From NCBI GenBank assembly GCA_964436955.1, contig CAYTFC010000003.1:4159-68158 (forward strand): a stretch of 64,000 bases of DNA, written 5' to 3'. Shown piece by piece: positions 4,699 to 59,703 of the stretch (positions are counted from its first letter, which is position 1; each line of letters opens with the position of its first letter). The translations under genes were made by a program, and so were the position numbers. Source of the stretch: an uncultured bacterium (GTDB taxonomy: Bacteria; Chlamydiota; Chlamydiia; Chlamydiales; JAJFMA01). Below the pieces are notes generated by a model. It was given only the letters and a program-made list of their open reading frames with translations, did no database searches and had not been told where the DNA came from.

Positions 4699-4719
4699 GT
4701 CTGCCTCGCCGAGGCAGAC
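4699..4719. terminator. perfect 10+1+10 palindrome between convergent genes (bidirectional terminator candidate)
   Basis: GTCTGCCTCG-C-CGAGGCAGAC between the stops at 4639 and 4741. Confidence 0.4.
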
Positions 4720-4740: not shown

Positions 4741-7700
4741 CTACAGGCTTTGTTTTTTTTTTATTTCGCGCCATTTGCTAGCGACGCTTGTGGCAATTGG
4801 GACGGCATCTCGGCCGAACGATCCATAGCGTAAATACACGACAACAACGAGTTCAGGACGTCCTTCCGGATCCTTAAAGACGGTTTCCTGTGATGTTCCA
4901 TCAAAGACAATTGTTCCGAACCACGTGTGGTTATAGGTGCGCGTACCTATTTGGCGATCAGGGCCAAAATTCTCTAAACTTTCTGCTGTGCTGGTCTTTC
5001 CTACTAATTGTCCTCGTAGATCGATCACGGATTGCAGGACCTCGGGATGAGGGGCATACAGTTCTTTCAAAGCATAAAACGTTTTGGTTTGATAACGGCT
5101 AGCGACTCGATGCATACCTTCGAGTAGTAAACTGCGAATAGGCGAGGGTAGCAGAACATGCCGCTCTACAATGCTATCTGGTGCTTCTGAGCGGCTTTCA
5201 CGCATACGTTGCGCGCTTGATAGAAAGAGAGGGAAGTCGATTCCTGCAGAAAGCAAGCTGTCTCGATAGTCAATGCCACGCCGACACGAGAGCGAAAAGT
5301 GGCGCGGTTGAGCTGTTCCCACAATGCTTTGAATGATTTTTGGCTGAAACACTTTCCCGCCGTTAGCCAAAGTTGAAAGCATAGTTGCTGTTTGCAATGG
5401 GGTGACCACCAAACTATGCTGTCCGATTGCCAAACTATATAGTCCATTGCGGTTATAGTCTAAATCTGAAGGGACTTTACCCGCAATTTCGCCTGGTAGT
5501 TGTATTCCTGTGCGTTGTCCATAAGATAGTGAGCGTGCGGCTTCAGCCAGGTCTAAGGGGCTTTCTAATACATCGCTTGTGAGCAGCGCAAAATAGCTAT
5601 TACTGGAAACTTCGATGGCTCTTACAACATCAAGTTCCCCGATGTTGGGGATTTGCGTTTTGGGAAGGAGTCCACCTTTATAGAATTGTGGGATGGGCTG
5701 TCCATCCATTGTGTAGCCGACGATCCAGTCATCCCTTACGCGAAGGGGTTGGTCCATAATTTTTAGTGGATTGAGGAGCTTTAGATCGGATCCTGATGCT
5801 TTTAATGCGATGTAGCGTTGCACTAATGCTTCATAGGCAGTCACAATTTTGAAAATGGAGCCTTGTGGGGTGGCCTGGCGATAGGCTATGGAGCGTCCAT
5901 AGCCAAAACCATAGGTGGGATAGAAGGCGGCAGCTAATTGCTTCTCATACTGTTGACCCTTTTCCCAACGTAATTGGCGATAGCGTCCATATAATGGGCG
6001 GTTTAACTCTTGATAGGAGCGCATGGTGGATAAGTATGCCTGCGCATTGGTATCGTCTAAATCCTGAAGGGTATTTTGTACTACGAGATAGTCCACATGC
6101 CATGGCATAGCCTGATGAGCGCCGTTTTTTATTTCTCGGTACCAGCTAGCAAAATAGTCTTGATAAGGTTCTAAAAGGGGGTTTCTTTCTAGGCCGCTCC
6201 CGCGAACAAACATGAGAACGAGCTTGGGTCCATTTGTCGCCCAAAATTCTTGAAACAATGCCTTTTCTTTTGCGTCGAGGTGCTCTGTATAGGGTTTGGC
6301 ATAGCGTTTATTTAAGACTTCTTCCCGTCGTTTGTCTTTCAAAAAGGTCTTTTCGTGAGCTTTACGCCATTCTTTAAAGGTCACGGTATGGAATAGGTCG
6401 CGGGTCATTTGATGCACTGCTTCTTGCACCACAATGCAGGCTTGGTTCACACGACGATAGTCGCTTAAAGACTGATCTCCAATGGACAGAAGCAGCTGCT
6501 GATTGAAGCGATCTCCATTCACTAGCATGCGGCAAAGATCGATAAGAAGTACCTTATCGTATGTATGCTTGACATCAGACAGATAGTGGTCAGTCTGAAA
6601 TTTGATCAGTTCGATTTCTTCAGCAGCGAGGTTAAGATTAGCTTCGATGCGCTCCCTTTCGGCGGCTGGTAAGGGACACGTTTGCGCTTGATGCCCGTTT
6701 TCTTGGTAGAGTAGGTTCAACAAGTAGGAAAGATCTGCTTGTCCACCGGCTGCAATGAGGCGGTCCGCAGCGCGTTGCAGGGCTACGGCACCATTGAGAT
6801 CGCGTACGTTCTTTAGACCTTTCACGACGTCGCCTTTCTCGTAGAGAGTGAGGTCGAGGTATTTTGACCAGCTTAAGGGTACGCTTTCTTCCCAAAAGCA
6901 GGTGTCACAGACTTCGCGTTGCAACGGACGCTTACCGTCCCACATGTTAGCTAGGTAATCATCGGTTTCAAACCACCGTCGAATGTTAGCTTTCTTGGTC
7001 GCGTTTAAAGTTGTGTCGCCTGAAGATACAAAGTCATTGGGATCGAATCGTGGCCAAGATGCCAACGCAACGATTTCGCCGTTATTGGGATCCATGGCTA
7101 CAATAGCGCCACCTTTAATCCACGGCTCCTTTACGGGCAGTTCTTCTTCTAACCGATGCGGCTTTGCCACACGTGTGTGTCGTATATGCTCGTTTTGAGC
7201 CAAAAGTTTTTCTGCGTGCTCTTGCAATTCTAGTGATAAGGTTAGCCCCACACTGCGACCCGGAATGGGTTGCCGCTGTCCTGGCAACTCGCGTAGATAG
7301 TTTCCCTTAGAATCCACGTAATAGCGCTTTTTTCCGTGATAGCCACGCAGGTCTTCCTCGAATTGCGCTTCAACTCCAGCCTTTCCTACATGATCATTGA
7401 TGGCGTAGGCGCGCTCGTCAATGTCGCGAAGGCGCTCACGCGCCTCTTCTACTGTCGCAAGGTTGAAGGGTAAAGGGGATTCTTGACCAGAGTCATATTC
7501 TCGAAAGTAACGCTGTAGAGACTTACGTTCGTGAATGATACCTTGGTATGTATTCGCATCAATCGCTCCCATATAGCCAACGATATCGCCTGCGGCACGT
7601 TCATAAGGATAATGACGCTTTGGAATACGCTGAGCTAGCAATCCCGGCCAGTCGGTTTCCAACATTTTTAGGCGATAGTATTCCTGTTCAGAAATATCCT

Positions 7701-16504: not shown

Positions 16505-16550
16505 GGTAGCAATCAGGGTCTCAGTGTCTGTGGTAAAAATCCGAAAAAAT
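16505..16550. repeat. truncated copy of the element C arm fused to a 17-mer also found next to element E
   Basis: TCTCAGTGTCTGTGGTAAAAATCCGAAAAAA matches 32744-32787 apart from an 8-nt deletion and one substitution; GGTAGCAATCAGGGTCT (16505-16521) is the reverse complement of 52600-52616. Confidence 0.6.
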
Positions 16551-18558: not shown

Positions 18559-18702
18559 TGGATAATAGCCATTAACAAGTTTAATTTGATGATAATAGGT
18601 GTTTGTCGCAATTTTTGCCAGCAACAAATTTTTATCATTTATTTAAAATTACTGTTGTGTTAGATTTTTTTTATACTTTTTAAATAATTTAAAGGGCTAA
18701 TA

Positions 18703-24261: not shown

Positions 24262-24308
24262 CAATTCGACTTGCTCGTAGCTTCCGCGAAGCGGCATATT
24301 AAGTCGGG

Positions 24309-24337
24309 TTGAAATTAATCCCGTGGAGAGGTAAAAT
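24309..24337 (+). promoter_or_regulatory. promoter candidate for secA (TTGAAA - 17 nt - TAAAAT)
   Basis: TTGAAA 24309-24314, 17-nt spacer, TAAAAT 24332-24337; 50 nt upstream of the secA ATG. Confidence 0.4.
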
Positions 24338-27452: not shown

Positions 27453-27528
27453 TCCCTTTGAGATAATTGCATAAGTCGGGTTGGCTTTTTCCGCTTTGTA
27501 AATAGACTTAGAAAGACATTATTTGTTC

Positions 27529-27778
27529 GAAAACCCCAAAAGGGGTTTCAAAATAATAGCCATGGGTAAGAACCCCGAGGGGTCGCAACCCATGGTATTG
27601 GCAATAGAATTCTGAACCCCGAACGGGGTTCCATATTTTTAAAATCCTATTTAAGACGTGCTGTGGATGATATTGAACCCGCTTCGGGGTTCGAGTTCTT
27701 CTCGCATTTTCCATGGGTTACGACCTCTTTCGAGGTCTTACCCATGGCTATTATTTTGAAACCCCTTTGGGGGTTTTC
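27529..27778. repeat. compound nested palindrome / hairpin cluster (element B)
   Basis: 43-nt inverted repeats 27529-27571 / 27736-27778 (one indel); each arm holds a CCATGGGT...ACCCATGG sub-palindrome; 6-7 short GC hairpins of the type GAACCCC-N4-GGGGTTC. Confidence 0.8.
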
Positions 27779-32543: not shown

Positions 32544-32792
32544 GTTTTGATTTTTTAGGATTTTTACCACAGAGGCACAGAGACACTGAGAAGGACCTGC
32601 GATTTAGAGGTCGGTTTTAGGGACTTTTTCTGGTCTTGAGAGACCAGAAAAAATTGCCTCAGTTTAACAGTTAAATGAGCTGGGTCTCCAGGCCTCTCAA
32701 GGCCTGGAGACTCCCTAAAACCGGTCTCTTAACCGCAGGCCCTTCTCAGTGTCTCTGTGCCTCTGTGGTAAAAATCCTAAAAAAAATCAAAC
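32544..32792. repeat. ~250-bp long-arm palindrome (element C) upstream of sctJ
   Basis: 32557-32594 is the exact reverse complement of 32741-32778 (38 bp); ~80-nt arms overall; internal hairpins 32625-32652 and 32684-32711. Confidence 0.9.
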
Positions 32793-32885: not shown

Positions 32886-33866
32886 TTGGTAATTGCAATG
32901 ACCACCTCTCGTTTTGTTAGTACTTTTTTTGCTTTCTTTGCTCTGCTTCTCCTCTTGACAGGCTGCTCTAGCCGCGAAATCATCGCTCACGATATGGATG
33001 AACGCGACGCTAACGAAATCCTCGTCTTCCTATCGGGTAAAGGGATTGAAGCCATCAAGGAGGAAGCTTTAGCAGGTACTGGAGGCGGTGGTGGCGGGGC
33101 GAAAAAATGGAATATTTCTGTCCCTTCAGAACAGAAACGTGAATCCATGGCCATTCTTAGCCAGGCTGGATTGCCTCGTCGTCCAGTTCAGAACCTTCTT
33201 GACCTCTTTAAGGACTCCGGCTTGGTGCCATCCGAACTTCAGCAGGAAATTCGCTATCAAACCGGCCTTGCCGAACAAATTGCTAGTGTCATTCGTAAAA
33301 TGGACGGAATTGTCGATGCAGAAGTACAACTAGCATTTCCTAAGGAAGATATTCTGAACCCTAATGCCAAAAAGGGTAAGATTACGGCTTCTGTATATGT
33401 GAAACATACCGGTGTACTGAACGATCCTAACAGCCTTGTTATTTCACGTATTCGTTCGCTAGTATCAGGATCGGTTCCGGAGCTGAACTATGATAACGTC
33501 ACTGTTGTACCTGACTTAGCTCGGTATCGCGAAGCTACTCCTAGTGGTGGTGAGGAAGGTATGAAATCTGGAGACAAGCCTTTGGTCTCTATCTGGACCA
33601 TTATCATAGCCAAAGAATCGGTTACACGTTTCCGTATCGTATTCTTCTCTTTCTTTGTTACTACGATCCTTTTGCTTACTCTGTTGTTCCTGCTGATCTT
33701 CCGTATTATGCCTATTCTACATGCAGCGAAAACTTCAGGTTCGCTATTTTCATTACGGCGTATTCATCCTGACGATGTCGTAAAGAAAGATGAACCAAAG
33801 TCACAAGCTGGTGTCGTGGAAGCAGGGAAGAATCCCTCAGACGCCGATGAAGAAGAGGAAACCTAA
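32886..33866 (+). CDS. sctJ: T3SS inner-membrane ring lipoprotein SctJ (YscJ/HrcJ/CdsJ family)
   Basis: Lipobox LLLTGCSS, then EIIAHDMDERDANEILVFLSGKGIEA (YscJ-type), C-terminal TM; TTG 32886 or ATG 32898. Confidence 0.85.
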   Translation: MVIAMTTSRFVSTFFAFFALLLLLTGCSSREIIAHDMDERDANEILVFLSGKGIEAIKEEALAGTGGGGGGAKKWNISVPSEQKRESMAILSQAGLPRRPVQNLLDLFKDSGLVPSELQQEIRYQTGLAEQIASVIRKMDGIVDAEVQLAFPKEDILNPNAKKGKITASVYVKHTGVLNDPNSLVISRIRSLVSGSVPELNYDNVTVVPDLARYREATPSGGEEGMKSGDKPLVSIWTIIIAKESVTRFRIVFFSFFVTTILLLTLLFLLIFRIMPILHAAKTSGSLFSLRRIHPDDVVKKDEPKSQAGVVEAGKNPSDADEEEET

Positions 33867-33874
33867 TAGATATC

Positions 33875-34735
33875 ATGGAACGCAAAGGATGGATGATTCT
33901 GCGTGTTTTGTTGAATCGCTATTATGGCGGCCTTTCAGAAGAGGTTGCTGCAATGGTGCCGGAGAGTTATCGCGCTACGCTTAAACAAAGCGATCTTTCG
34001 GCCACCGATGCAGCCTCTTTGCTGGTACAACCTTCTTTCCGCCTGAAAAATATTCATTATTCATGGTTTATACCAGCTATTCAGGCTTTGCCAAAGCCGC
34101 TGCGTAAACCGACAATTGGTGCCTTGGAACATTCTCAGGCTATTGGAATCTGTCGTATGCTACGCTGTGGGATGCCCGAAACATCGCCTAGCTCGCCCAT
34201 TGGGGAATTTTTGCTTCACACACTGTATCATCGAGTAGATCCTGAAGAACGATTGCCAGCATCTTATCTTGAAGACACACCATTAAAGTCATTGGCAGTG
34301 TATTCTAAAGCTACCCTTACGAAACTTATCGATCTCTTAGGAATTAGAGACCTTGTTCAGGAAGTGCGCCTTATCGTGAATAAGCATCATCAAGAAGCAC
34401 TCATGAATTGTTTAACTGAGGAAGAGCGACAGTTTTTTGAATTCTATATGTATAAGCAGCGGGAAAAACTTAAGGTTCCTCGGTTAAATCTCACGGGATG
34501 GAATGGCGAACCTCGCAAAGTGCGTCAGCAAATTCAAATACGTGGCCTTATGCGTTTTGGCAAGGCGCTATCGGGACAAAATCCAGATTTTCTTTGGTAT
34601 ATCTATCATACCTTAGATACGGGGCGCGCCGCGATTATTAAACAATATTGTGCCAATACGCCTATTGAAGGGCTTACGGCAGAATTACAGCGACAGGTCA
34701 TAGGACTCATCAATTATTTTAATAAGAAAGAGTAG
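33875..34735 (+). CDS. hypothetical T3SS-associated protein in the sctK position
   Basis: 286-aa ORF between sctJ and sctL, 8-nt and 2-nt intergenic gaps; no motif recognised. Confidence 0.6.
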   Translation: MERKGWMILRVLLNRYYGGLSEEVAAMVPESYRATLKQSDLSATDAASLLVQPSFRLKNIHYSWFIPAIQALPKPLRKPTIGALEHSQAIGICRMLRCGMPETSPSSPIGEFLLHTLYHRVDPEERLPASYLEDTPLKSLAVYSKATLTKLIDLLGIRDLVQEVRLIVNKHHQEALMNCLTEEERQFFEFYMYKQREKLKVPRLNLTGWNGEPRKVRQQIQIRGLMRFGKALSGQNPDFLWYIYHTLDTGRAAIIKQYCANTPIEGLTAELQRQVIGLINYFNKKE

Positions 34736-34737
34736 TC

Positions 34738-35367
34738 GTGGGTAAAAAGAAGTTTTTCACTCTCTTGTATGGGCAAAATGTACATGTCTCTCCAGGTTCC
34801 AAGGTCATACCTGCCAAGGTGTTTTCCAAAGCCCTTACGGCAGCAGAAGTGCTTGCACATGCGCAAGAGGAAGTAGATCGCTATCGCCAGGAAGTTGCTG
34901 AAGAGTGTGAGAAGCTTAAAATTCAAGCTCAGCAAGAAGGGTTTCAAGAAGGTTTTGCTAAATGGGCTGGGCATGTCGCGGAATTGGAAGCGGAAATGGC
35001 AAACGTCAATCGCGCTACCGAAAAAATGATTATTCCAGTAGCTTTAAAGGCCGCACGAAAAATTGTTGGACGCGAAATTGAGCTTTCTGAAAAAGCCATT
35101 GTGGATATCGTTGCAACCAAACTCAAAGCTGTTAAGCAGAGCAAGCAAGTTGTTGTTTACGTTTGCCCTCAAGACCTTAATAAACTTGAGGCTAGCAGAA
35201 AAGAACTCATGCAGGTATTCGAGAAATTAGAGACACTCTCCATTCGTCCTAGCGATGATGTTAAGCCTGGAGGCTGCATCATTGAAACGGAAGCTGGAAT
35301 TATCAATGCCCAGCTAGAGAAGCAGTGGGAAATACTGGAAAATGCCTTTCAATCGATGATGACATAA
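34738..35367 (+). CDS. sctL: T3SS stator protein SctL (YscL/FliH family)
   Basis: 209 aa, coiled-coil-rich (AEVLAHAQEEVDRYRQEVAEECEKLKIQAQQEG), position directly before sctR; GTG start. Confidence 0.65.
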   Translation: MGKKKFFTLLYGQNVHVSPGSKVIPAKVFSKALTAAEVLAHAQEEVDRYRQEVAEECEKLKIQAQQEGFQEGFAKWAGHVAELEAEMANVNRATEKMIIPVALKAARKIVGREIELSEKAIVDIVATKLKAVKQSKQVVVYVCPQDLNKLEASRKELMQVFEKLETLSIRPSDDVKPGGCIIETEAGIINAQLEKQWEILENAFQSMMT

Positions 35368-35379
35368 AGGTCAATAGAC

Positions 35380-36273
35380 ATGAGATCGAGACTTTTCTCC
35401 TTACGCTTTATGCTTTATCTCTCGGCGGCACTGGCCGTTGCATGGCTCGTGCCAGTGGATCTTTTTCCGCAAAACAAAACGAATGTTGAAAAGACCGATC
35501 AAGTTCAAAAAGCCCCTGCTGACGCAAACAAGACCCAGGAACAAGTTGCAGGTCAACCAAAGCCGGCTGAAATTTTGGAGCATGCCCCATTCGATGAATT
35601 CAAACGACCATCGTTGATTACTCAGGCTGTTACGCTTTCTTTGTTGGCACTGTTGCCCTTCATCATCATGCTGTTGACCTCGTTCCTAAAGATCGTGATC
35701 GTGCTATCACTTCTTCGAAGCGCCTTAGGTGTTCAGCAAGCGCCCCCGAACCAGATCATCAACGGCGTGGGCTTCATGCTCACCATGTACATCATGTATC
35801 CCACAGCGCTGGAAATGTATGATGAATCTAATCTTGCCATTAACGAGTATGCTGCGCCTGAGTCCATGTTTACTACTGAATCATCTCAATATATTGTTAA
35901 CGTTGCCGGACGCACGCGGGAGCCTCTTAGGTTGTTCTTGAAACGCAATTCGGCCGTTAAGCACCAAGCTCTCTTTTACCGAATGGCTTACCGCATTATC
36001 CCTGAAGACCATCGTGCAAGCTTAACCCCAGAAGATTTCATTATTTTGGTACCAGCATTTATCACGAGTCAGCTGAAAGAAGCTTTTGAGATCGGGGTAT
36101 TGATCTACATACCGTTCTTTGTTATCGATCTTGTGACCTCCAACGTCCTACTCGCTATGGGTATGATGATGCTGTCCCCCGTAACCATTTCCATGCCTCT
36201 GAAACTTTTCCTGCTGGTAATGCTTGATGGATGGACGCTGTTGATCGAAGGTTTGGTATTAACTTTCCGCTAA
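35380..36273 (+). CDS. sctR: T3SS export apparatus protein SctR (YscR/FliP family) with N-terminal extension
   Basis: TSFLKIVIVLSLLRSALGVQQAPPNQIINGVGFMLTMYIMYP matches the FliP/YscR core. Confidence 0.9.
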   Translation: MRSRLFSLRFMLYLSAALAVAWLVPVDLFPQNKTNVEKTDQVQKAPADANKTQEQVAGQPKPAEILEHAPFDEFKRPSLITQAVTLSLLALLPFIIMLLTSFLKIVIVLSLLRSALGVQQAPPNQIINGVGFMLTMYIMYPTALEMYDESNLAINEYAAPESMFTTESSQYIVNVAGRTREPLRLFLKRNSAVKHQALFYRMAYRIIPEDHRASLTPEDFIILVPAFITSQLKEAFEIGVLIYIPFFVIDLVTSNVLLAMGMMMLSPVTISMPLKLFLLVMLDGWTLLIEGLVLTFR

Positions 36274-36291
36274 TTGAAAGGGGCTTAAACG

Positions 36292-36567
36292 ATGTTCCAA
36301 ACACAAGTTGTGCAGCTGGCCTATAAGGGCCTTTTGCTGATTCTCATTCTCTCAGCGCCCCCGATTTTGATCAGTATGTTCTTTGGTATCATCGTGGCTA
36401 TCTTTCAGGCAGCAACGCAAATTCAGGAGCAAACTCTCTCTTTTACGGTTAAGTTGGTGGCTGTTACCTTAGTCTTGATGCTTCTTGGCCCTTGGTTAGG
36501 AGCTCAGATTATGAGTTTGGCAGTTGACGTTTTCAAAAACTTCCCCGTTTGGGCAAGGTCGGGATAA
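36292..36567 (+). CDS. sctS: T3SS export apparatus protein SctS (YscS/FliQ family)
   Basis: 91 aa, FQAATQIQEQTLSFTVKLVAV core motif, two TM helices. Confidence 0.9.
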   Translation: MFQTQVVQLAYKGLLLILILSAPPILISMFFGIIVAIFQAATQIQEQTLSFTVKLVAVTLVLMLLGPWLGAQIMSLAVDVFKNFPVWARSG

Positions 36568-36570
36568 TCG

Positions 36571-37443
36571 ATGGAGGCCGAATCAAATCTTTACCTAGAT
36601 CTCTATTTGAACGGCCATTTTCCTAACAATACGCCCGTATCTTTGCTTTCTATGATGCTGTTGGTTTTAGGACGCATTCTGCCCATTATCTCTCAGTCAC
36701 CCTTTTTGGGTGCACGTGTGTTACCCCACCCGGTTAAGGTGACGTTTGCCATGTCCCTTTTTGTGATTTTTTTGCCCCAACTTTTGATCACTACAGAAAC
36801 ACCTATCGAGTTCAACTTACGTATGGTGTTGCTCATGGCAAAGGAAATTTTCATTGGTTATTCCATCGGATTTTTGATGAGTATTCCGTTTGTTGTGGCT
36901 CAAAACGTGGGTATGATCATAGACCACCAGCGCGGTGGTGCCAGCTTGATGGTGAACGACCCCACTATTCAGAACCAATCATCGCCGATTGGCACCCTTC
37001 TCAACATGATGTTGATCTATTTGTTCTTTGTCATGGATGGTCCTTTTCACTTCATTGAGGGAATTCGCAAATCTTATGAATTAATACCTCTAGACCGGTT
37101 TTTGAGCAGCGCCTTCTTTTCTCCACAGTCTCCAATGTATCGGCTAAACCTCGAAGTCTTCAACACAATGATGGTGCTCACACTGCAACTTTCTGCGCCT
37201 GCATTGCTGACGATTTTGATGACAGACGTCTTTTTAGGTATCGCTAATCGCCTAGCACCTCAAGTACAGATAACCTTTTTAGGTATGCCCTTAAAGTCTT
37301 TGCTGGCCCTCATGATAGTCACGATAGGACTACAGGTGTTTACACAGCAGCTTACGATAGATACCTATAAATGGCTGCAAACAGTCATTAGAGCCATTGG
37401 ATGGTTAACATATGGTCTACCACCTTCTGTTGCCCCAACATAA
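36571..37443 (+). CDS. sctT: T3SS export apparatus protein SctT (YscT/FliR family)
   Basis: 290-aa polytopic membrane protein directly after sctS; DHQRGGA loop typical of FliR/SctT. Confidence 0.85.
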   Translation: MEAESNLYLDLYLNGHFPNNTPVSLLSMMLLVLGRILPIISQSPFLGARVLPHPVKVTFAMSLFVIFLPQLLITTETPIEFNLRMVLLMAKEIFIGYSIGFLMSIPFVVAQNVGMIIDHQRGGASLMVNDPTIQNQSSPIGTLLNMMLIYLFFVMDGPFHFIEGIRKSYELIPLDRFLSSAFFSPQSPMYRLNLEVFNTMMVLTLQLSAPALLTILMTDVFLGIANRLAPQVQITFLGMPLKSLLALMIVTIGLQVFTQQLTIDTYKWLQTVIRAIGWLTYGLPPSVAPT

Positions 37444-43101: not shown

Positions 43102-44661
43102 TCACATACTCTCTTTTGTCAATATGGCTCGTAGGGGAGCGCCATCGAGGTTTGGTAGATGCAGAGGTAGAGCGATAAGTTTGTATTTGCCGGGAGTTAC
43201 ATGCTTAAGATGTAGCCCCTCAACAATAATGGTATTTGCCTTCAGAAGAATTTCATGTGTGGCATTTGTGGGATCTTCAAACGCTTGTATCGAAGGTCCA
43301 TCGGTACCGATTAGATGGATGCCTTTTTGTACCAATAACTCAGCACTTTCGGGAGTAATTGCGATAAATTTTGGATCGAATTCTCCACACATTTCGGAAT
43401 TCTTTGTTTTAAGTAGAATGCGCGTAGTGGCAGCGGGAATATTTGCTGCGAGGAAGAACGACGGTTGGATATGGCCATTTCCGCGGTATTCTAGGACGTG
43501 AGCTTCGCCAATTAATTTGTCTAACCCGATGTCATGTGTAAAGGAACCGTCTTCAACAAAATGAAAGGGGGCATCCAGATGGGTTCCTGAGTGGGCACTT
43601 AACGAAACATGCGAAACATTGTGGCCATGTTCTGCCATCGTTTTGGTTTGAGAAATCTTTACGGGATGGTCGCCTGGCCACACAACCATACTAGAGGTAA
43701 TTGGTCGAGAAATGTCGATATATTCAGGTTTCATCGATGGCATATTGCTTTGCTGGCTAAAGGGCTTACGTGGGTAATAAAGTCGCCTACGCATCCCATC
43801 AGACATCGGTTCGCGATAGCGGTAGGCACGGAAAGTGCCCCAAAACTGCAAAAAGCGAAATAGCGGAATATCCATGAGGTTTGTGAGTAGTTTTCCATCC
43901 CTCAACGCATGGAAATAGTCTCCAATCGTATTCATGAGAGAGAATTTGGCAAAGCTCCACAAACCGAAATGATGATCCTTAAAGATCTCTTTGTAAGCTA
44001 GAGCCTCGCGGTAGTAGCGTCGATAGATCTGTGTGCTGGTTTCATCATGAATATGATAAACACTGGCTTCAGCAATGTATGCAATGCGATGGCCTTTTTG
44101 AAGGATGGCTTTGCCCCATGCGATGTCCTCTAGACCTGAGAGTGTTTCGTCAAATGGAGTTTGGTCCCATAAAGACCTTCGAATGGCCGAGTTGGCATTG
44201 TTGCAAAAGGCAAGCCCACAATCGGGATTGCTTTCCAGGGGAAACCATTTAGCAAAGATCTGATGTTCGGAATAGCGGGTTTGTTCATCACCTTGTTGAC
44301 GACCATAAACAAGCCCCACATTACTATCACGGCGAAGAGGTTCTACTAGATATTTCAACCACAATGTATTGGTGGGGTGGCAGTGTGCACTGATAACGAC
44401 TACTATGTTACCTTGTGCTTTGGCAATTCCCTGGTTTAACGAATAGCCAAATGTAAACTTCTCCGGAGATATTGTGACAATTTGTACAGGATAATCTCTG
44501 ACGATATCTAAAGTACCATCAATAGAACCAGAATCAACGACGATCACTTCAAAGGCAAGATCTATTTGTTGTGCATGAATTTCCTGAAGAAGACTCCCAA
44601 TATGCCTTGCTTCATTGTGAGTGCGGATGACAATGGAAATTTCGGGTTGCATCGAAGGCAT
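43102..44661 (-). CDS. fusion protein: N-terminal family-2 glycosyltransferase + C-terminal cyclase/kynurenine-formamidase-like domain
   Basis: GT2: ISIVIRTHNE, VIVVDSGSIDGT, LEDIAWG; cyclase family: AHSGTHLDAPFHF (HxGTHxDxPxH). Confidence 0.8.
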   Translation of the reverse strand: MPSMQPEISIVIRTHNEARHIGSLLQEIHAQQIDLAFEVIVVDSGSIDGTLDIVRDYPVQIVTISPEKFTFGYSLNQGIAKAQGNIVVVISAHCHPTNTLWLKYLVEPLRRDSNVGLVYGRQQGDEQTRYSEHQIFAKWFPLESNPDCGLAFCNNANSAIRRSLWDQTPFDETLSGLEDIAWGKAILQKGHRIAYIAEASVYHIHDETSTQIYRRYYREALAYKEIFKDHHFGLWSFAKFSLMNTIGDYFHALRDGKLLTNLMDIPLFRFLQFWGTFRAYRYREPMSDGMRRRLYYPRKPFSQQSNMPSMKPEYIDISRPITSSMVVWPGDHPVKISQTKTMAEHGHNVSHVSLSAHSGTHLDAPFHFVEDGSFTHDIGLDKLIGEAHVLEYRGNGHIQPSFFLAANIPAATTRILLKTKNSEMCGEFDPKFIAITPESAELLVQKGIHLIGTDGPSIQAFEDPTNATHEILLKANTIIVEGLHLKHVTPGKYKLIALPLHLPNLDGAPLRAILTKESM

Positions 44662-44785
44662 AGCAATAAAGGCCTATGTATCTTAGGGAGTTTGGATAAT
44701 CATGCGCGCCACTCTAAATTTAGTCAATTATTGACATAGCAAATATTACGAAAGACAGTATCGTCAAAATAAGGGAAACTATTAG

Positions 44786-44865
44786 GGCTGCCACTTCGGC
44801 GAAGTGGCTCTACATGTTTTGTTACACGTTGTAGCGCCGCTTCGCCGAAGCGGCATAAACAAAGG
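44786..44865. repeat. double-hairpin palindromic element (element D) in a divergent promoter region
   Basis: GCCACTTCG-G-CGAAGTGGC (44790-44808) and GCCGCTTCG-C-CGAAGCGGC (44836-44854); 44836-44865 matches 52651-52680 at 27/30. Confidence 0.85.
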
Positions 44866-44930
44866 CTTGGTATGGACATCGGATTCCTGGTATCGTTTTG
44901 ATATTCAACTCACAACCGCAGGGGACCAAA

Positions 44931-45677
44931 ATGAAGATCGTAGGTTGCATTCCCGCACGAATGGGGTCAAGTCGCTTTCCTGGAAAGCCTATGGAATTGA
45001 TCCATGGTGTACCGATGATTGGTCACGTCTATCTTAGAGCACGAGAGGCCACTTCCTTGAATGGGCTTTATGTAGCAACCTGTGATCAGGTAATCTTCGA
45101 TTACATCACCTCCATCGGAGGGATTGCAATTATGACTAGTGATGAACATCCAGGTTGTGTAGATCGTTGTACTGAAGCCTTATATGTTATAGAACAGCTA
45201 CAGGGAAAGCAGGTCGACGTGATGGTGATTATTCAGGGCGATGAACCTTTACTACGTCCAGAAATGATCGACGATGCGATTGCACCACTTAAGCAAGACC
45301 CTTCTATTTCCATTTCTAACTTGATGGGCCGCATTGAGGATCCTAAAGAGTTTAGTGATATCAATGAAATCAAGGTTGTGGTGGATTGTCATAGCAATGC
45401 TCTTTATTTTTCAAGAGAGCCAATTCCCTGCGGAAAAAAGGGGGAGGGCCATGCAAATCGATGGAAGCAAATTTGCATTATGCCAATACGTCGTGACTTG
45501 TTAATTCGATTTGGCGAAATGCCGCGCACATCACTAGAGATCTGTGAATCAATCGATATGTTAAGGCTATTGGAGAATGGTATTCCCGTTCGTATGGTGC
45601 CTACAAATCATGTGATGAAGAGTGTTGATACTCTAGAAGATCTTATTAAGGTTCGCGAATTAATGGAGGTTCATTAG
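44931..45677 (+). CDS. KdsB-like 3-deoxy-manno-octulosonate (or related ulosonic acid) cytidylyltransferase
   Basis: MKIVGCIPARMGSSRFPGKPM, IIQGDEPLL, ALYFSREPIP align by eye to E. coli KdsB; ATG 44931 preferred over TTG 44898. Confidence 0.8.
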   Translation: MKIVGCIPARMGSSRFPGKPMELIHGVPMIGHVYLRAREATSLNGLYVATCDQVIFDYITSIGGIAIMTSDEHPGCVDRCTEALYVIEQLQGKQVDVMVIIQGDEPLLRPEMIDDAIAPLKQDPSISISNLMGRIEDPKEFSDINEIKVVVDCHSNALYFSREPIPCGKKGEGHANRWKQICIMPIRRDLLIRFGEMPRTSLEICESIDMLRLLENGIPVRMVPTNHVMKSVDTLEDLIKVRELMEVH

Positions 45678-51463: not shown

Positions 51464-52534
51464 CTAAGTCAATGATAATCCCTTAAAAAAGCTTCGAAAT
51501 TCCTGAAACACTAGTTCTGGGTGCAAGGCCCACAGGCATGCATGATCGGTGCAATCGACAGCATTCTTAAATCGGCTGGTATTTCTTCCTACCCAAACAT
51601 TACAAGGTCCACAAGAAGGGTTAGAGGAAACATCTCGATGCATTTTAGGATTTAGCCACTCATAGCCAAATTGACTGGGGCTTGAACCACCCCAAACAAT
51701 GAAGGTGGGCTTCTTAAGGGAAGCAGCAATATGCATTAAACCGCTATCATGTCCAACAAGAACACTGCTTTGTTTAATAATATTCATAACCTCACTCAGA
51801 TTTGTCTTCCCAACTAGAGATGCTACCCCAGGAATATTCTCCTGCATAATTATTTGAGCATTGATCTGCTCGTTTTTATCGCCCAGTAAAATAAACTGAT
51901 GGCTTCGAAAGGCTTTTGATGCCATTTTGAGCCACTCTATCCAGTATTCTAATGGCCACGTTTTAAAGGCAAAAAGGTTATTCGCCGCGGTAGGCTGAAT
52001 GGCAATATAGGGCAAAGTTGTGTCTATGGAAGTAGGCTGCGCGGTTGAAAAACATCTTGCTATAGTATCCTCTGAAAATGCCATCATATCAGGCAACATA
52101 TCGTCATTTGTGGCATGGGGGACGCTAAGGCGCAGATTTTGAATTGCAGCATGAATACCTGTTGCGGGTGGTTGAGTAGTAGCATTTGCTCCTAGAAGCA
52201 GCCACAGTCTTTTTCCTTCTAGGGTGCCGATGATTTTGCGTCCTATCAATCGAGAGGTGAGGATGTTTTCCTTCGTTGCAGCTAGATAGCTGAGATAGAC
52301 TTCGTCAAACGCTTTATAGTTGTCTTTTACCAGACCAAATAGCGAGGCCATTGAGTCTTGGATAGAAATGGCGTTATCTAAAAGGCCGGTATCTTTGAAT
52401 AATACATCAGAGAAGTATTGCGATTGAAATATACCGGTGACGATACGCCCAGTTGCCTTTAGATTTTTTAATAAAGGAATCATGAGCAACGCATCGCCAA
52501 GTCCGGCGTTAATGTAGACAGCAGCTCGTATCAC
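51464..52534 (-). CDS. glycosyltransferase family 9 (LPS heptosyltransferase-type)
   Basis: GLGDALLMIPLLKNLK N-terminus, VGHDSGLMHIAASLKKPTFIVWGG C-terminal motif; GTG start. Confidence 0.8.
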   Translation of the reverse strand: MIRAAVYINAGLGDALLMIPLLKNLKATGRIVTGIFQSQYFSDVLFKDTGLLDNAISIQDSMASLFGLVKDNYKAFDEVYLSYLAATKENILTSRLIGRKIIGTLEGKRLWLLLGANATTQPPATGIHAAIQNLRLSVPHATNDDMLPDMMAFSEDTIARCFSTAQPTSIDTTLPYIAIQPTAANNLFAFKTWPLEYWIEWLKMASKAFRSHQFILLGDKNEQINAQIIMQENIPGVASLVGKTNLSEVMNIIKQSSVLVGHDSGLMHIAASLKKPTFIVWGGSSPSQFGYEWLNPKMHRDVSSNPSCGPCNVWVGRNTSRFKNAVDCTDHACLWALHPELVFQEFRSFFKGLSLT

Positions 52535-52599
52535 AGTAAAATCCAGAATTTAGTATTGTGGAAACTCTAGCATAATGTGAAATTTGATGTGTAGAGGTT

Positions 52600-52705
52600 A
52601 GACCCTGATTGCTACCCAATGCAGTCAACTTAAAATAAACCTTTGTTAATGCCGCTTCGCCGAAGTGGTATTAACAAAGGTTTATTTTAAGTTGACAGCA
52701 TTGGG
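52600..52705. repeat. 91-nt hairpin palindrome (element E) plus flanking 17-mer, in a divergent promoter region
   Basis: 45-nt arms 52615-52659 / 52661-52705 with 3 mismatches (two are G:T); core GCCGCTTCGCCGAAGTGG related to element D. Confidence 0.85.
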
Positions 52706-52755
52706 TGGCAAGTCGGGTTTAAAGCTTGGGCATCGATAATTCCAAGCCGATCACC

Positions 52756-52784
52756 TTGTCAAAAATAAGTTATTTCAATATTGT
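52756..52784 (+). promoter_or_regulatory. promoter candidate (TTGTCA - 17 nt - TATTGT) for the 52820 gene
   Basis: Hexamers at 52756-52761 and 52779-52784; the implied start site lies downstream of TTG 52781, which supports ATG 52820. Confidence 0.35.
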
Positions 52785-59602: not shown

Positions 59603-59703
59603 ACGCCGCAGCTTAGCATAAAGCCAGCCTCACTGACAAGATCCCAAAAAATCAAAACAGACGAAAGCGAGGACGTGAGTCCATAATCATTACGTTCGTA
59701 GAC

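Follow-up and report, generated by a model that had tools for sequence, protein, structure and literature searches.

When two divergent promoter regions share a palindrome, is it an operator through which one regulator coordinates neighbouring operons, or a repeat that lies in both? We asked this of a 64,000-nt stretch of DNA (the window) from an uncultured bacterium of the Chlamydiales (JAJFMA01; contig CAYTFC010000003.1), in which two palindromes at 44.8 kb lie between a GT2-cyclase operon and a kdsB-like gene of a glycan island. The initial annotation left both answers standing: a common operator for a dimeric regulator of the island operons, or a repeat of the repetitive extragenic palindrome (REP) type that prefers these gaps. 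Our analysis indicates that the palindromes are very likely a dispersed repeat and not an operator. More specifically, and with moderate confidence, we read them as copies of a short dispersed hairpin repeat of the REP kind, with the unit 5'-GTAG-N-GCCRCTTCGCCGAAGYGGC-3'. Coordinates are those of the window throughout; the window is part of a 71,544-nt contig (~71.5 kb) from a groundwater metagenome, which was rebuilt from two records and is deposited as k127_165489 under ENA ERZ909576 (PRJNA292723) and also at NCBI.

The palindromes form a tail-to-tail doublet

The gene context was as annotated. The GT2-cyclase gene, a fusion gene on the minus strand (43102-44661, start 44661), diverges from a CTP_transf_3 (kdsB-like) gene whose ATG lies at 44931 on the plus strand. 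Two perfect 9+1+9 palindromes can be read off the sequence between them, at the places already noted: pal1, GCCACTTCG-G-CGAAGTGGC (44790-44808), and pal2, GCCGCTTCG-C-CGAAGCGGC (44836-44854), with CTACA (44810-44814) and TGTAG (44830-44834) between the two. Together they are the arms of a single inverted repeat (44789-44814 and 44830-44855; 26 nt each, 88% complementary) around a 15-nt spacer, TGTTTTGTTACACGT (44815-44829), giving a doublet of 67 nt (44789-44855). Going outwards from its centre, both arms read T-GTAG-N-GCCRCTTCGCCGAAGYGGC, and the GTAG tags thus lie inside. On the plus strand the pal2 unit (44830-44865) consists of T-GTAG-C, the core GCCGCTTCGCCGAAGCGGC (44836-44854) and the tail ATAAACAAAGG; its inverted partner, the pal1 unit (44790-44814), reads T-GTAG-A followed by the core GCCACTTCGCCGAAGTGGC on the minus strand. 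The element at 44789-44855 is a tail-to-tail REP dimer, or REPIN-like doublet (REPIN, REP doublet forming a hairpin), with GTAG inside.

A compensatory A-T/G-C exchange at stem position 4/16 sets pal1 apart from pal2 and leaves both palindromes perfect. When the whole doublet is folded as RNA, it gives one hairpin, at -45.9 kcal/mol (z = -8.5). A degenerate form of the palindrome, allowing up to 3 mismatches, matched 4 times in the window where 0.07 matches were expected, and 0 of 100 shuffles reached 4. The doublet is no assembly artefact, because a contig assembled independently from a second sample (L117) shows not one base difference over the length of the element. Logan short-read contigs break off inside it, at 44809 and 44839 with a 29-nt gap, and also inside a second palindromic element, at 52629; a drop in coverage at the hairpins, the repeats themselves or strain variants may be the cause.

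Copies of the core are dispersed along the contig

Cores with at most 1 mismatch occur on the 71.5-kb contig at 44790, 44836, 52651 and 64467-64485, and a degenerate copy lies at 24277, giving five copies at four loci, all of them intergenic. This census covers one contig, ~3% of a typical chlamydial genome. The copy at 52651 lies in the other divergent gap of the island, which is bounded, as the initial annotation had it, by a GT9 gene (51464-52534, minus strand) and an unannotated open reading frame (ORF) of 529 aa that starts at 52781 on the plus strand; the 27/30 match between 44836-44865 and 52651-52680 is likewise correct. The copy at 64467-64485 lies just beyond the window (L123 11925-11943), between a 286-aa ORF and gpsA, upstream of the latter. 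The contig has 21 perfect hairpins whose stems reach at least 8 bp, and in GC content the cores are near the top of this set.

Oriented with the central C, pal2 reads GTAGC-core-ATAAACAAAGG, pal1 GTAGA-core-AGCCCTAAT, the 64467 copy GTAAGA-core-ATTAGAAAAAGG and the 52651 copy TTAAT-core-ATTAACAAAGG; in the 24277 copy GTAG overlaps the stem, which is followed by ATATT. In both units of the doublet, then, 1 nt separates GTAG from the stem; the tag appears as GTAAG at 64467 and is absent at 52651. The core is usually followed by a tail of the form ATWAAMAAAGG. Beyond 11-21 nt from the core the copies cease to resemble one another, and the modules that flank it change order or orientation from locus to locus. 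The flank AAGGGAAACTATTAGGGCT (44771-44789), for instance, is repeated DNA that recurs inverted beside the 64467 copy, where 44771-44791 and 64458-64438 (contig-equivalent positions) are identical at 19/21 positions. Such embedding in other repeats speaks against an operator, as do the copy upstream of gpsA and the decayed one upstream of secA.

Two more distant relatives had been suggested, and one of them belongs to the family. The copy at 24277-24295 (plus strand) differs by 3 mismatches; taken together with ATA, its right half is identical at 12/12 positions. The other, 4699-4719, is a different hairpin, GTCTGCCTCG-C-CGAGGCAGAC, which was not recovered even at 4 mismatches. It is a perfect 10+1+10 palindrome in a convergent gap with a long T-run ~35 nt downstream, and is probably a terminator unrelated to the palindromes studied here.

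The way in which the copies vary bears directly on the operator. In two other copies, all 6 transition mismatches are G·T pairs on the sense (plus) strand of the downstream genes, which would happen by chance in ~3% of cases; mutation bias could account for this instead. Since the copies differ by compensatory or G·T changes, it is the hairpin that is preserved and not a base-specific protein site. An operator would call for kept base contacts, and the changes seen here are mirrored in both half-sites or wobble, so that pairing is what is kept. Nor is the spacing to the genes constant, the distances from core centre to downstream start codon being 86, 132, 161 and 190 nt.

Relatives keep a promoter block and lack the palindromes

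The closest homologues of the GT2-cyclase, 65% and 59% identical, come from two relatives (L112 and L115), and both retain the divergent CTP_transf_3 gene. Their divergent gaps, at 87 and 162 nt by the genes as called, are shorter than the 269 nt found here and have in common with the gap in the window only a block of ~40 nt, TTGACGATAATGCGCCGCT.CCCTAATTTCGTCAAT. By alignment with L112 and L115 this conserved promoter block is placed at 44686-44728 (TTGGATAATCATGCGCGCCACTCTAAATTTAGTCAAT), where the minus strand carries TTGACT-17-CATGAT facing the GT2-cyclase operon; the homologous promoter-like site, TTGACG-17-CATTAT in the relatives, was called in all three genomes. The start codon of the kdsB-like gene follows the block by 22-26 nt in the relatives (conserved N-terminus M-x-IVG-x-IPARM) and by 204 nt here. 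Because of that short distance, the relatives' kdsB-like promoter would have to overlap the block, where opposite-facing hexamers, TTGACG-17-TAATTT, fall below the promoter-scan threshold.

The doublet sits in the middle of ~180 nt of extra, lineage-specific DNA between the block and the kdsB-like start codon. In L112 and L115 the orthologous gap lacks the palindromes, and the core was found in no relative locus examined. At secA, the promoter TTGAAA-17-TAAAAT is conserved in relatives (84-87% SecA identity) and the adjacent upstream hairpin is not. A 7-nt direct repeat, GTATCGT, brackets the extra leader DNA (44758-44770 and 44890-44902); one copy continues with TCAAAA, the other with the inverse, TTTTGA. 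It could be a relic of the origin of a ~130-nt insert, or chance.

The same neighbourhoods have received other DNA in the relatives. They have large RHS/YD-repeat toxin genes close to the kdsB-like gene and immediately after secA, and a DDE transposase of the IS4/IS5 type just upstream of secA (L112 2547-8306, L121 3481-8034 and L120 170-1492). Both neighbourhoods are evidently insertion hot spots in this clade.

These comparisons leave the operator without the two marks by which we would know it, conservation at orthologous promoters and base-specific variation: the relatives keep a different promoter block. CIRCE, the palindromic operator of the dimeric repressor HrcA in Chlamydia, offers a useful comparison. 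Like sites of this type, the palindromes here are perfect dyads, promoter-proximal and upstream of several genes of related function. Unlike them, they have GC-rich half-sites of 9 bp separated by one base, with changes mirrored in both; they have no cognate regulator gene in the island, are not conserved at orthologous promoters and lie inside other repeats.

The tagged stem-loop is a repeat elsewhere

As a pattern, the tagged core is GTAG-N-GCCRCTTCGSCGAAGYGGC. GTAG-N-core occurs at 11 loci in JGI metagenomes, 10 of which have ~70% GC and come from two sister samples. The exact tag and core, GTAGGGCCGCTTCGCCGAAGCGGCC, occupies at least 6 distinct extragenic loci of a ~70%-GC organism, including a convergent uvrD/gyrA gap, and forms one threefold tandem array with a 42-nt period (L134 7390-7497; metagenomes Ga0299913 and Ga0299914). 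Bare cores behave differently: among the matches listed (110 unrelated genomes of the GC-rich type), GTAG stands within 0-2 nt of the core in 0 of 111. The stem-loop therefore carries the tag where it behaves as a repeat, and the chlamydial doublet has the tag at the same offset. In the ~70%-GC organism GTAGGGCCGCTTCGCCGAAGCGGCC often adjoins a second palindrome, GGCGCGCTCGGCGAGCGCGCC. No REP-associated tyrosine transposase (RAYT) was found beside these repeats.

The core followed by its tail gave 0 matches in metagenomes, and neither this query nor the MITE end described below (MITE, miniature inverted-repeat transposable element) matched viral sequences. At the gathering and E-value thresholds of Rfam only tRNAs pass; the elements give sub-threshold, microRNA-precursor-like hairpin matches that fall far below. 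A cUUCGg tetraloop was considered for the core and rejected, as it would have a stem of only 3 bp against 8 bp for the palindrome.

Comparison with GTAG REPs

Bertels & Rainey in 2011 and Messing in 2012 reportedly described GTAG REPs and REPINs and their RAYT-type mobilisation. GTAG-tagged REPs and their dimers (bacterial interspersed mosaic elements, BIMEs, or REPINs) are thought to be mobilised by the HUH tyrosine transposases RAYT/TnpAREP (Di Nocera 2013, PMC3733652; Corneloup 2021, PMC8266576). The GTAG REPs in the literature are characterised by stems of 5-13 bp with tiny loops. Their dimers, arranged head-to-head or tail-to-tail, can fold into two hairpins or a single one. G-T pairing is frequent, which has been taken as a sign of function at the RNA level, and the REPs can sit in long palindromes (PMC3733652). 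TnpAREP uses the GTAG 5' of the palindrome for recognition and as a guide, and the palindromes of group 3 REPs are perfect (PMC8266576).

The layout of the chlamydial unit matches this description. The unit is short, a 19-nt 9+1+9 palindrome that reaches 24-35 nt with tag and tail. Its stem-loop is GC-rich, with ~8-9 bp in the stem and a tiny loop, and in the doublet GTAG directly precedes it on the 5' side. All copies are extragenic. As in tail-to-tail REP dimers, the doublet has GTAG inside and can fold as separate hairpins or as one long one; as in REP heterodimers, a compensatory change at one stem position distinguishes its two units. The stems include G·T pairs, and one copy is nested in a long palindrome. 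The differences are that no RAYT lies on the contig and five copies were counted on its 71.5 kb, that GTAG is missing from one copy and imperfect in two, that only 17 nt separate the tags of the doublet where 20-100 bp is usual, and that the host is an environmental chlamydia. Our literature search found no paper that mentions REPs together with chlamydia-related genera. That a RAYT in particular spread the copies is a possibility that we hold tentatively.

One copy lies at the tip of a MITE-like element

The core at 52651-52669 (GCCGCTTCGCCGAAGTGGT) is the exact centre, or tip, of a 125-nt palindrome whose 62-nt arms (52598-52659 and 52661-52722) are 87% complementary. Its MITE-like body (52601-52719) has the left end GACCCTGATTGCTACC and the right end GGTGGCAAGTCGGGTT, with TTA and TAA as its flanks. 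The insertion is the same in independent samples. The element folds with z = -17.6, and better on the plus strand (-88.1 kcal/mol) than on the minus strand (-72.2), because all 5 transition mismatches are G·T on the plus strand. Its centre (52637-52683), a 20-bp hairpin with an A-run on one side and a T-run on the other, has the look of a bidirectional intrinsic terminator; of the hairpins studied it is the only one in which a GC-rich stem is followed by a T-run. Each arm also contains an inward promoter-like site, TTGCYA-16-TAAAAT, at 52609-52636 (plus strand) and 52711-52684 (minus strand). An integron attC reading of the palindrome was rejected by eye: only one end fits GTTRRRY, on the wrong side, and there is no integrase.

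The ends of this element recur. GACCCTGATTGCTACC, also written as the pattern GACCCWGATTGCTACC, has exact copies at 16505 and 67193. The first is a solo end (16505-16520, minus strand) fused to a fragment of another inverted repeat (16527-16550, resembling the ends of 32551-32784); the contig stops ~120 nt past the second, near 67314, and so the 71.5-kb contig ends inside a MITE. The other end, AAGTCGGGTT, stands alone at 27473-27482 (plus strand) and has exact copies at 24301 and 52710, which makes three, all on the plus strand, against ~0.1 expected for an exact 10-mer by our own arithmetic. In a relative with 84% SecA identity (L118), a 310-bp element flanked by ATA/ATA (4764-5073) has perfect terminal repeats of 21 nt, formed by GACCCAGATTGCTACC, one base off GACCCTGATTGCTACC. 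The flanks, TTA/TAA here and ATA/ATA there, are suggestive of a target duplication, not proof of it. Shared terminal repeats of this kind are found at the 52.6-kb element only, and not at the 44.8-kb doublet. The decayed copy upstream of secA belongs in this context too: a 47-nt stretch (24265-24311, plus strand) made up of AATTCGACTTGC, GTAGCTTCCGCGAAGCGGC, ATATT and AAGTCGGGTT, which ends at the -35 of the secA promoter, looks like an internally deleted mini-version with end, decayed core and end.

Bacterial MITEs with long palindromic bodies include the Correia elements of Neisseria, ERIC/IRU of enterobacteria and the Rickettsia palindromic elements. The 52.6-kb element resembles them in its length of ~125 nt, in being almost fully self-complementary, in terminal inverted repeats that it has in common with other elements, in its TA-containing trinucleotide flanks and in its promoter- and terminator-like motifs; if transcribed, it would form long double-stranded RNA. 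It has no sequence similarity to any of the three, and the 44.8-kb doublet is without MITE ends.

Could MITE debris account for everything? The core would then be the central segment of one MITE family moved by a DDE enzyme, the other copies would be remnants and the GTAG coincidental, with no RAYT involved. The recurrence of the 52.6-kb ends at 16505 and 67193 and, nearly identical, on the 310-bp L118 element, the TTA and TAA flanks and the end-core-end layout of 24265-24311 would all follow from this. It would also sit well with relatives that bear other long-armed MITEs and a DDE_Tnp_1 transposase beside secA, and with a contig on which no RAYT was found. Against it, the doublet and the 64467 copy are without any MITE end, both units of the doublet show GTAG-N-core and the 64467 copy comes close to it, tag and core together are truly multi-copy elsewhere whereas the bare cores listed are untagged, and REPs nested in long palindromes have already been described (PMC3733652). 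On balance we consider MITE debris unlikely as the whole explanation.

Weighing the dispersed repeat against its alternatives

Under the reading that we prefer, a dispersed REP-type repeat, the copies would have been spread by a trans-acting enzyme, for which the favoured candidate is a RAYT-type HUH tyrosine transposase acting on single-stranded DNA with GTAG and hairpin; the candidate for moving the MITE shell is a DDE transposase. With the promoter placed as we infer it, the doublet is probably transcribed within the 5' leader of the kdsB-like gene, where its RNA would form one hairpin of ~26 bp or three small ones; transcription would in that case begin around 44722-44735, upstream of the doublet. 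The 125-nt element would likewise lie in the leader of its downstream plus-strand gene. Any effect on expression would then come through RNA structure (stability, RNase III-type processing or a roadblock) and not through a dedicated dimeric DNA-binding regulator.

Several observations weigh against this reading. Neither a RAYT (Y1 transposase) nor a transposase of another type turned up in Pfam tables and scans of the ORFs on the 71.5-kb contig, and a high copy number is unproven at ~3% coverage of a typical genome. The two GTAG tags of the doublet belong to one inverted duplication and are not independent, and the 52.6-kb copy has no GTAG. At the 52.6-kb element neither an empty-site allele nor a clean target duplication was seen, the nearest GT9 homologues being at most 38% identical. 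The kdsB-like promoter is a putative one. Finally, the three loci with good copies all lie within 44.8-64.5 kb, in or at the edge of the glycan/lipid block.

This clustering also lends weak backing to the earlier remark that the repeat prefers these gaps: good copies occupy 3 of 9 island gaps and 0 of ~21 outside (p≈0.02, hypergeometric, our own arithmetic on the one contig). It could reflect local spread, or an accessory region tolerant of insertions. Because the good copies cluster in the glycan island, the operator is kept alive at low probability, helped by the perfect dyads, by the position of the three good loci upstream of genes and by two of these loci being divergent promoter gaps.

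The hairpins might instead be selected by the host and not mobile at all, as leader or terminator structures (stabilisers, RNase III sites or attenuators). In favour of this, each of the 6 wobble mismatches gives G·U in the sense orientation of the downstream genes, both folds are very stable (z = -8.5 and z = -17.6), and the centre of the 125-nt element, with its A-run, 20-bp stem and T-run, resembles a bidirectional intrinsic terminator. At 44.8 kb, though, no T-run follows the palindromes and no intrinsic terminator was called between 44500 and 45100; no Rfam family is above threshold, the hairpins are missing from the orthologous leaders in relatives, the shuffled flanks and solo end fragments are typical of repeat decay and not of a conserved RNA, and the G·T bias could be mutational. 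We judge this explanation improbable.

Least probable of all is a double-stranded site for a dimeric transcription factor that co-regulates the operons of the glycan and lipopolysaccharide (LPS) island, given variation that preserves the hairpin, the ~40-nt block as the part of the gap that relatives conserve and the lack of any recognisable DNA-binding regulator among the glycan-island ORFs in Pfam tables and ORF scans; the other half of the initial proposal, the REP-type repeat, is the one favoured by the copies at gpsA and (decayed) secA, the larger repeats around them, the GTAG tag and the absence from the relatives' gap.

Other repeats and neighbouring genes

Further inverted repeats lie in the window. 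Just downstream of secA is a nested inverted repeat of 250 nt (27529-27778), with outer arms of 43 nt that are 98% complementary; it is packed with small GC hairpins (GAACCCCGAACGGGGTTC, GACCTCTTTCGAGGTC and AAACCCCTTTGGGGGTTT) and has no other match in the window. The inverted repeat at 32551-32784 has 73-nt arms, 93% complementary, around an 88-nt centre with two perfect 12-bp hairpins. Fragments of its ends (…CTCTGTGGTAAAAATCCTAAAAAA) turn up in three further intergenic gaps (16527-16550, 59641-59658 and 18658-18673), and it looks like a second MITE family. Between the genes for a HAD hydrolase and a UVR-motif protein lies a third (13525-13698, or 13541-13685 by another delimitation), whose 43-nt arms are built of short repeats of the AAAGGAC/GTCCTTT type; one arm matches L115 7703-7727 at 23/25 positions. 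The relative L112 has two copies of a ~230-nt element with arms of 63-64 nt (507-734 and 8477-8699).

A type III secretion cluster (32886-37443) directly adjoins the glycan island. Its gene order is chlamydial: YscJ/FliF-like, a 286-aa ORF, FliH-like, FliP, FliQ-like and FliR-like (sctJ-?-sctL-sctRST). The SecA encoded in the window is 84% identical to a protein annotated 'MAG: Chlamydiales bacterium' (MAG, metagenome-assembled genome) and 71% identical to that of Protochlamydia.

Implications

The first consequence is that a tempting but unsupported regulon hypothesis for the glycan island is removed. The conserved promoter region of the gap between the kdsB-like and GT2-cyclase genes is better sought in the ~40-nt block at 44686-44728. 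Repeats of this sort may also fragment short-read MAG assemblies, as the breaks of the Logan contigs at both elements suggest.

A bolder version is that a live or recently live GTAG-REP/RAYT system was seeded horizontally and that copies were recruited as leader hairpins of LPS and glycan genes, which we regard as improbable on present evidence. If it were true, a 74%-GC unit with the same tag and stem as the REP of an unrelated 70%-GC bacterium would point to horizontal seeding, and the sense-strand RNA hairpins would give the glycan island a shared post-transcriptional handle. It would also place a GTAG-REP system in an environmental chlamydia, an obligate intracellular lineage from which such systems are not known; this, too, seems a long shot.

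The finding is otherwise fairly ordinary; its unusual points are the lineage of the host and a tag and stem identical to those of a REP in a GC-rich bacterium. That identity is a small, testable hint on how REP systems spread. If our reading is right, the Chlamydiae would join the lineages that carry GTAG-type REP doublets and long-armed MITEs.

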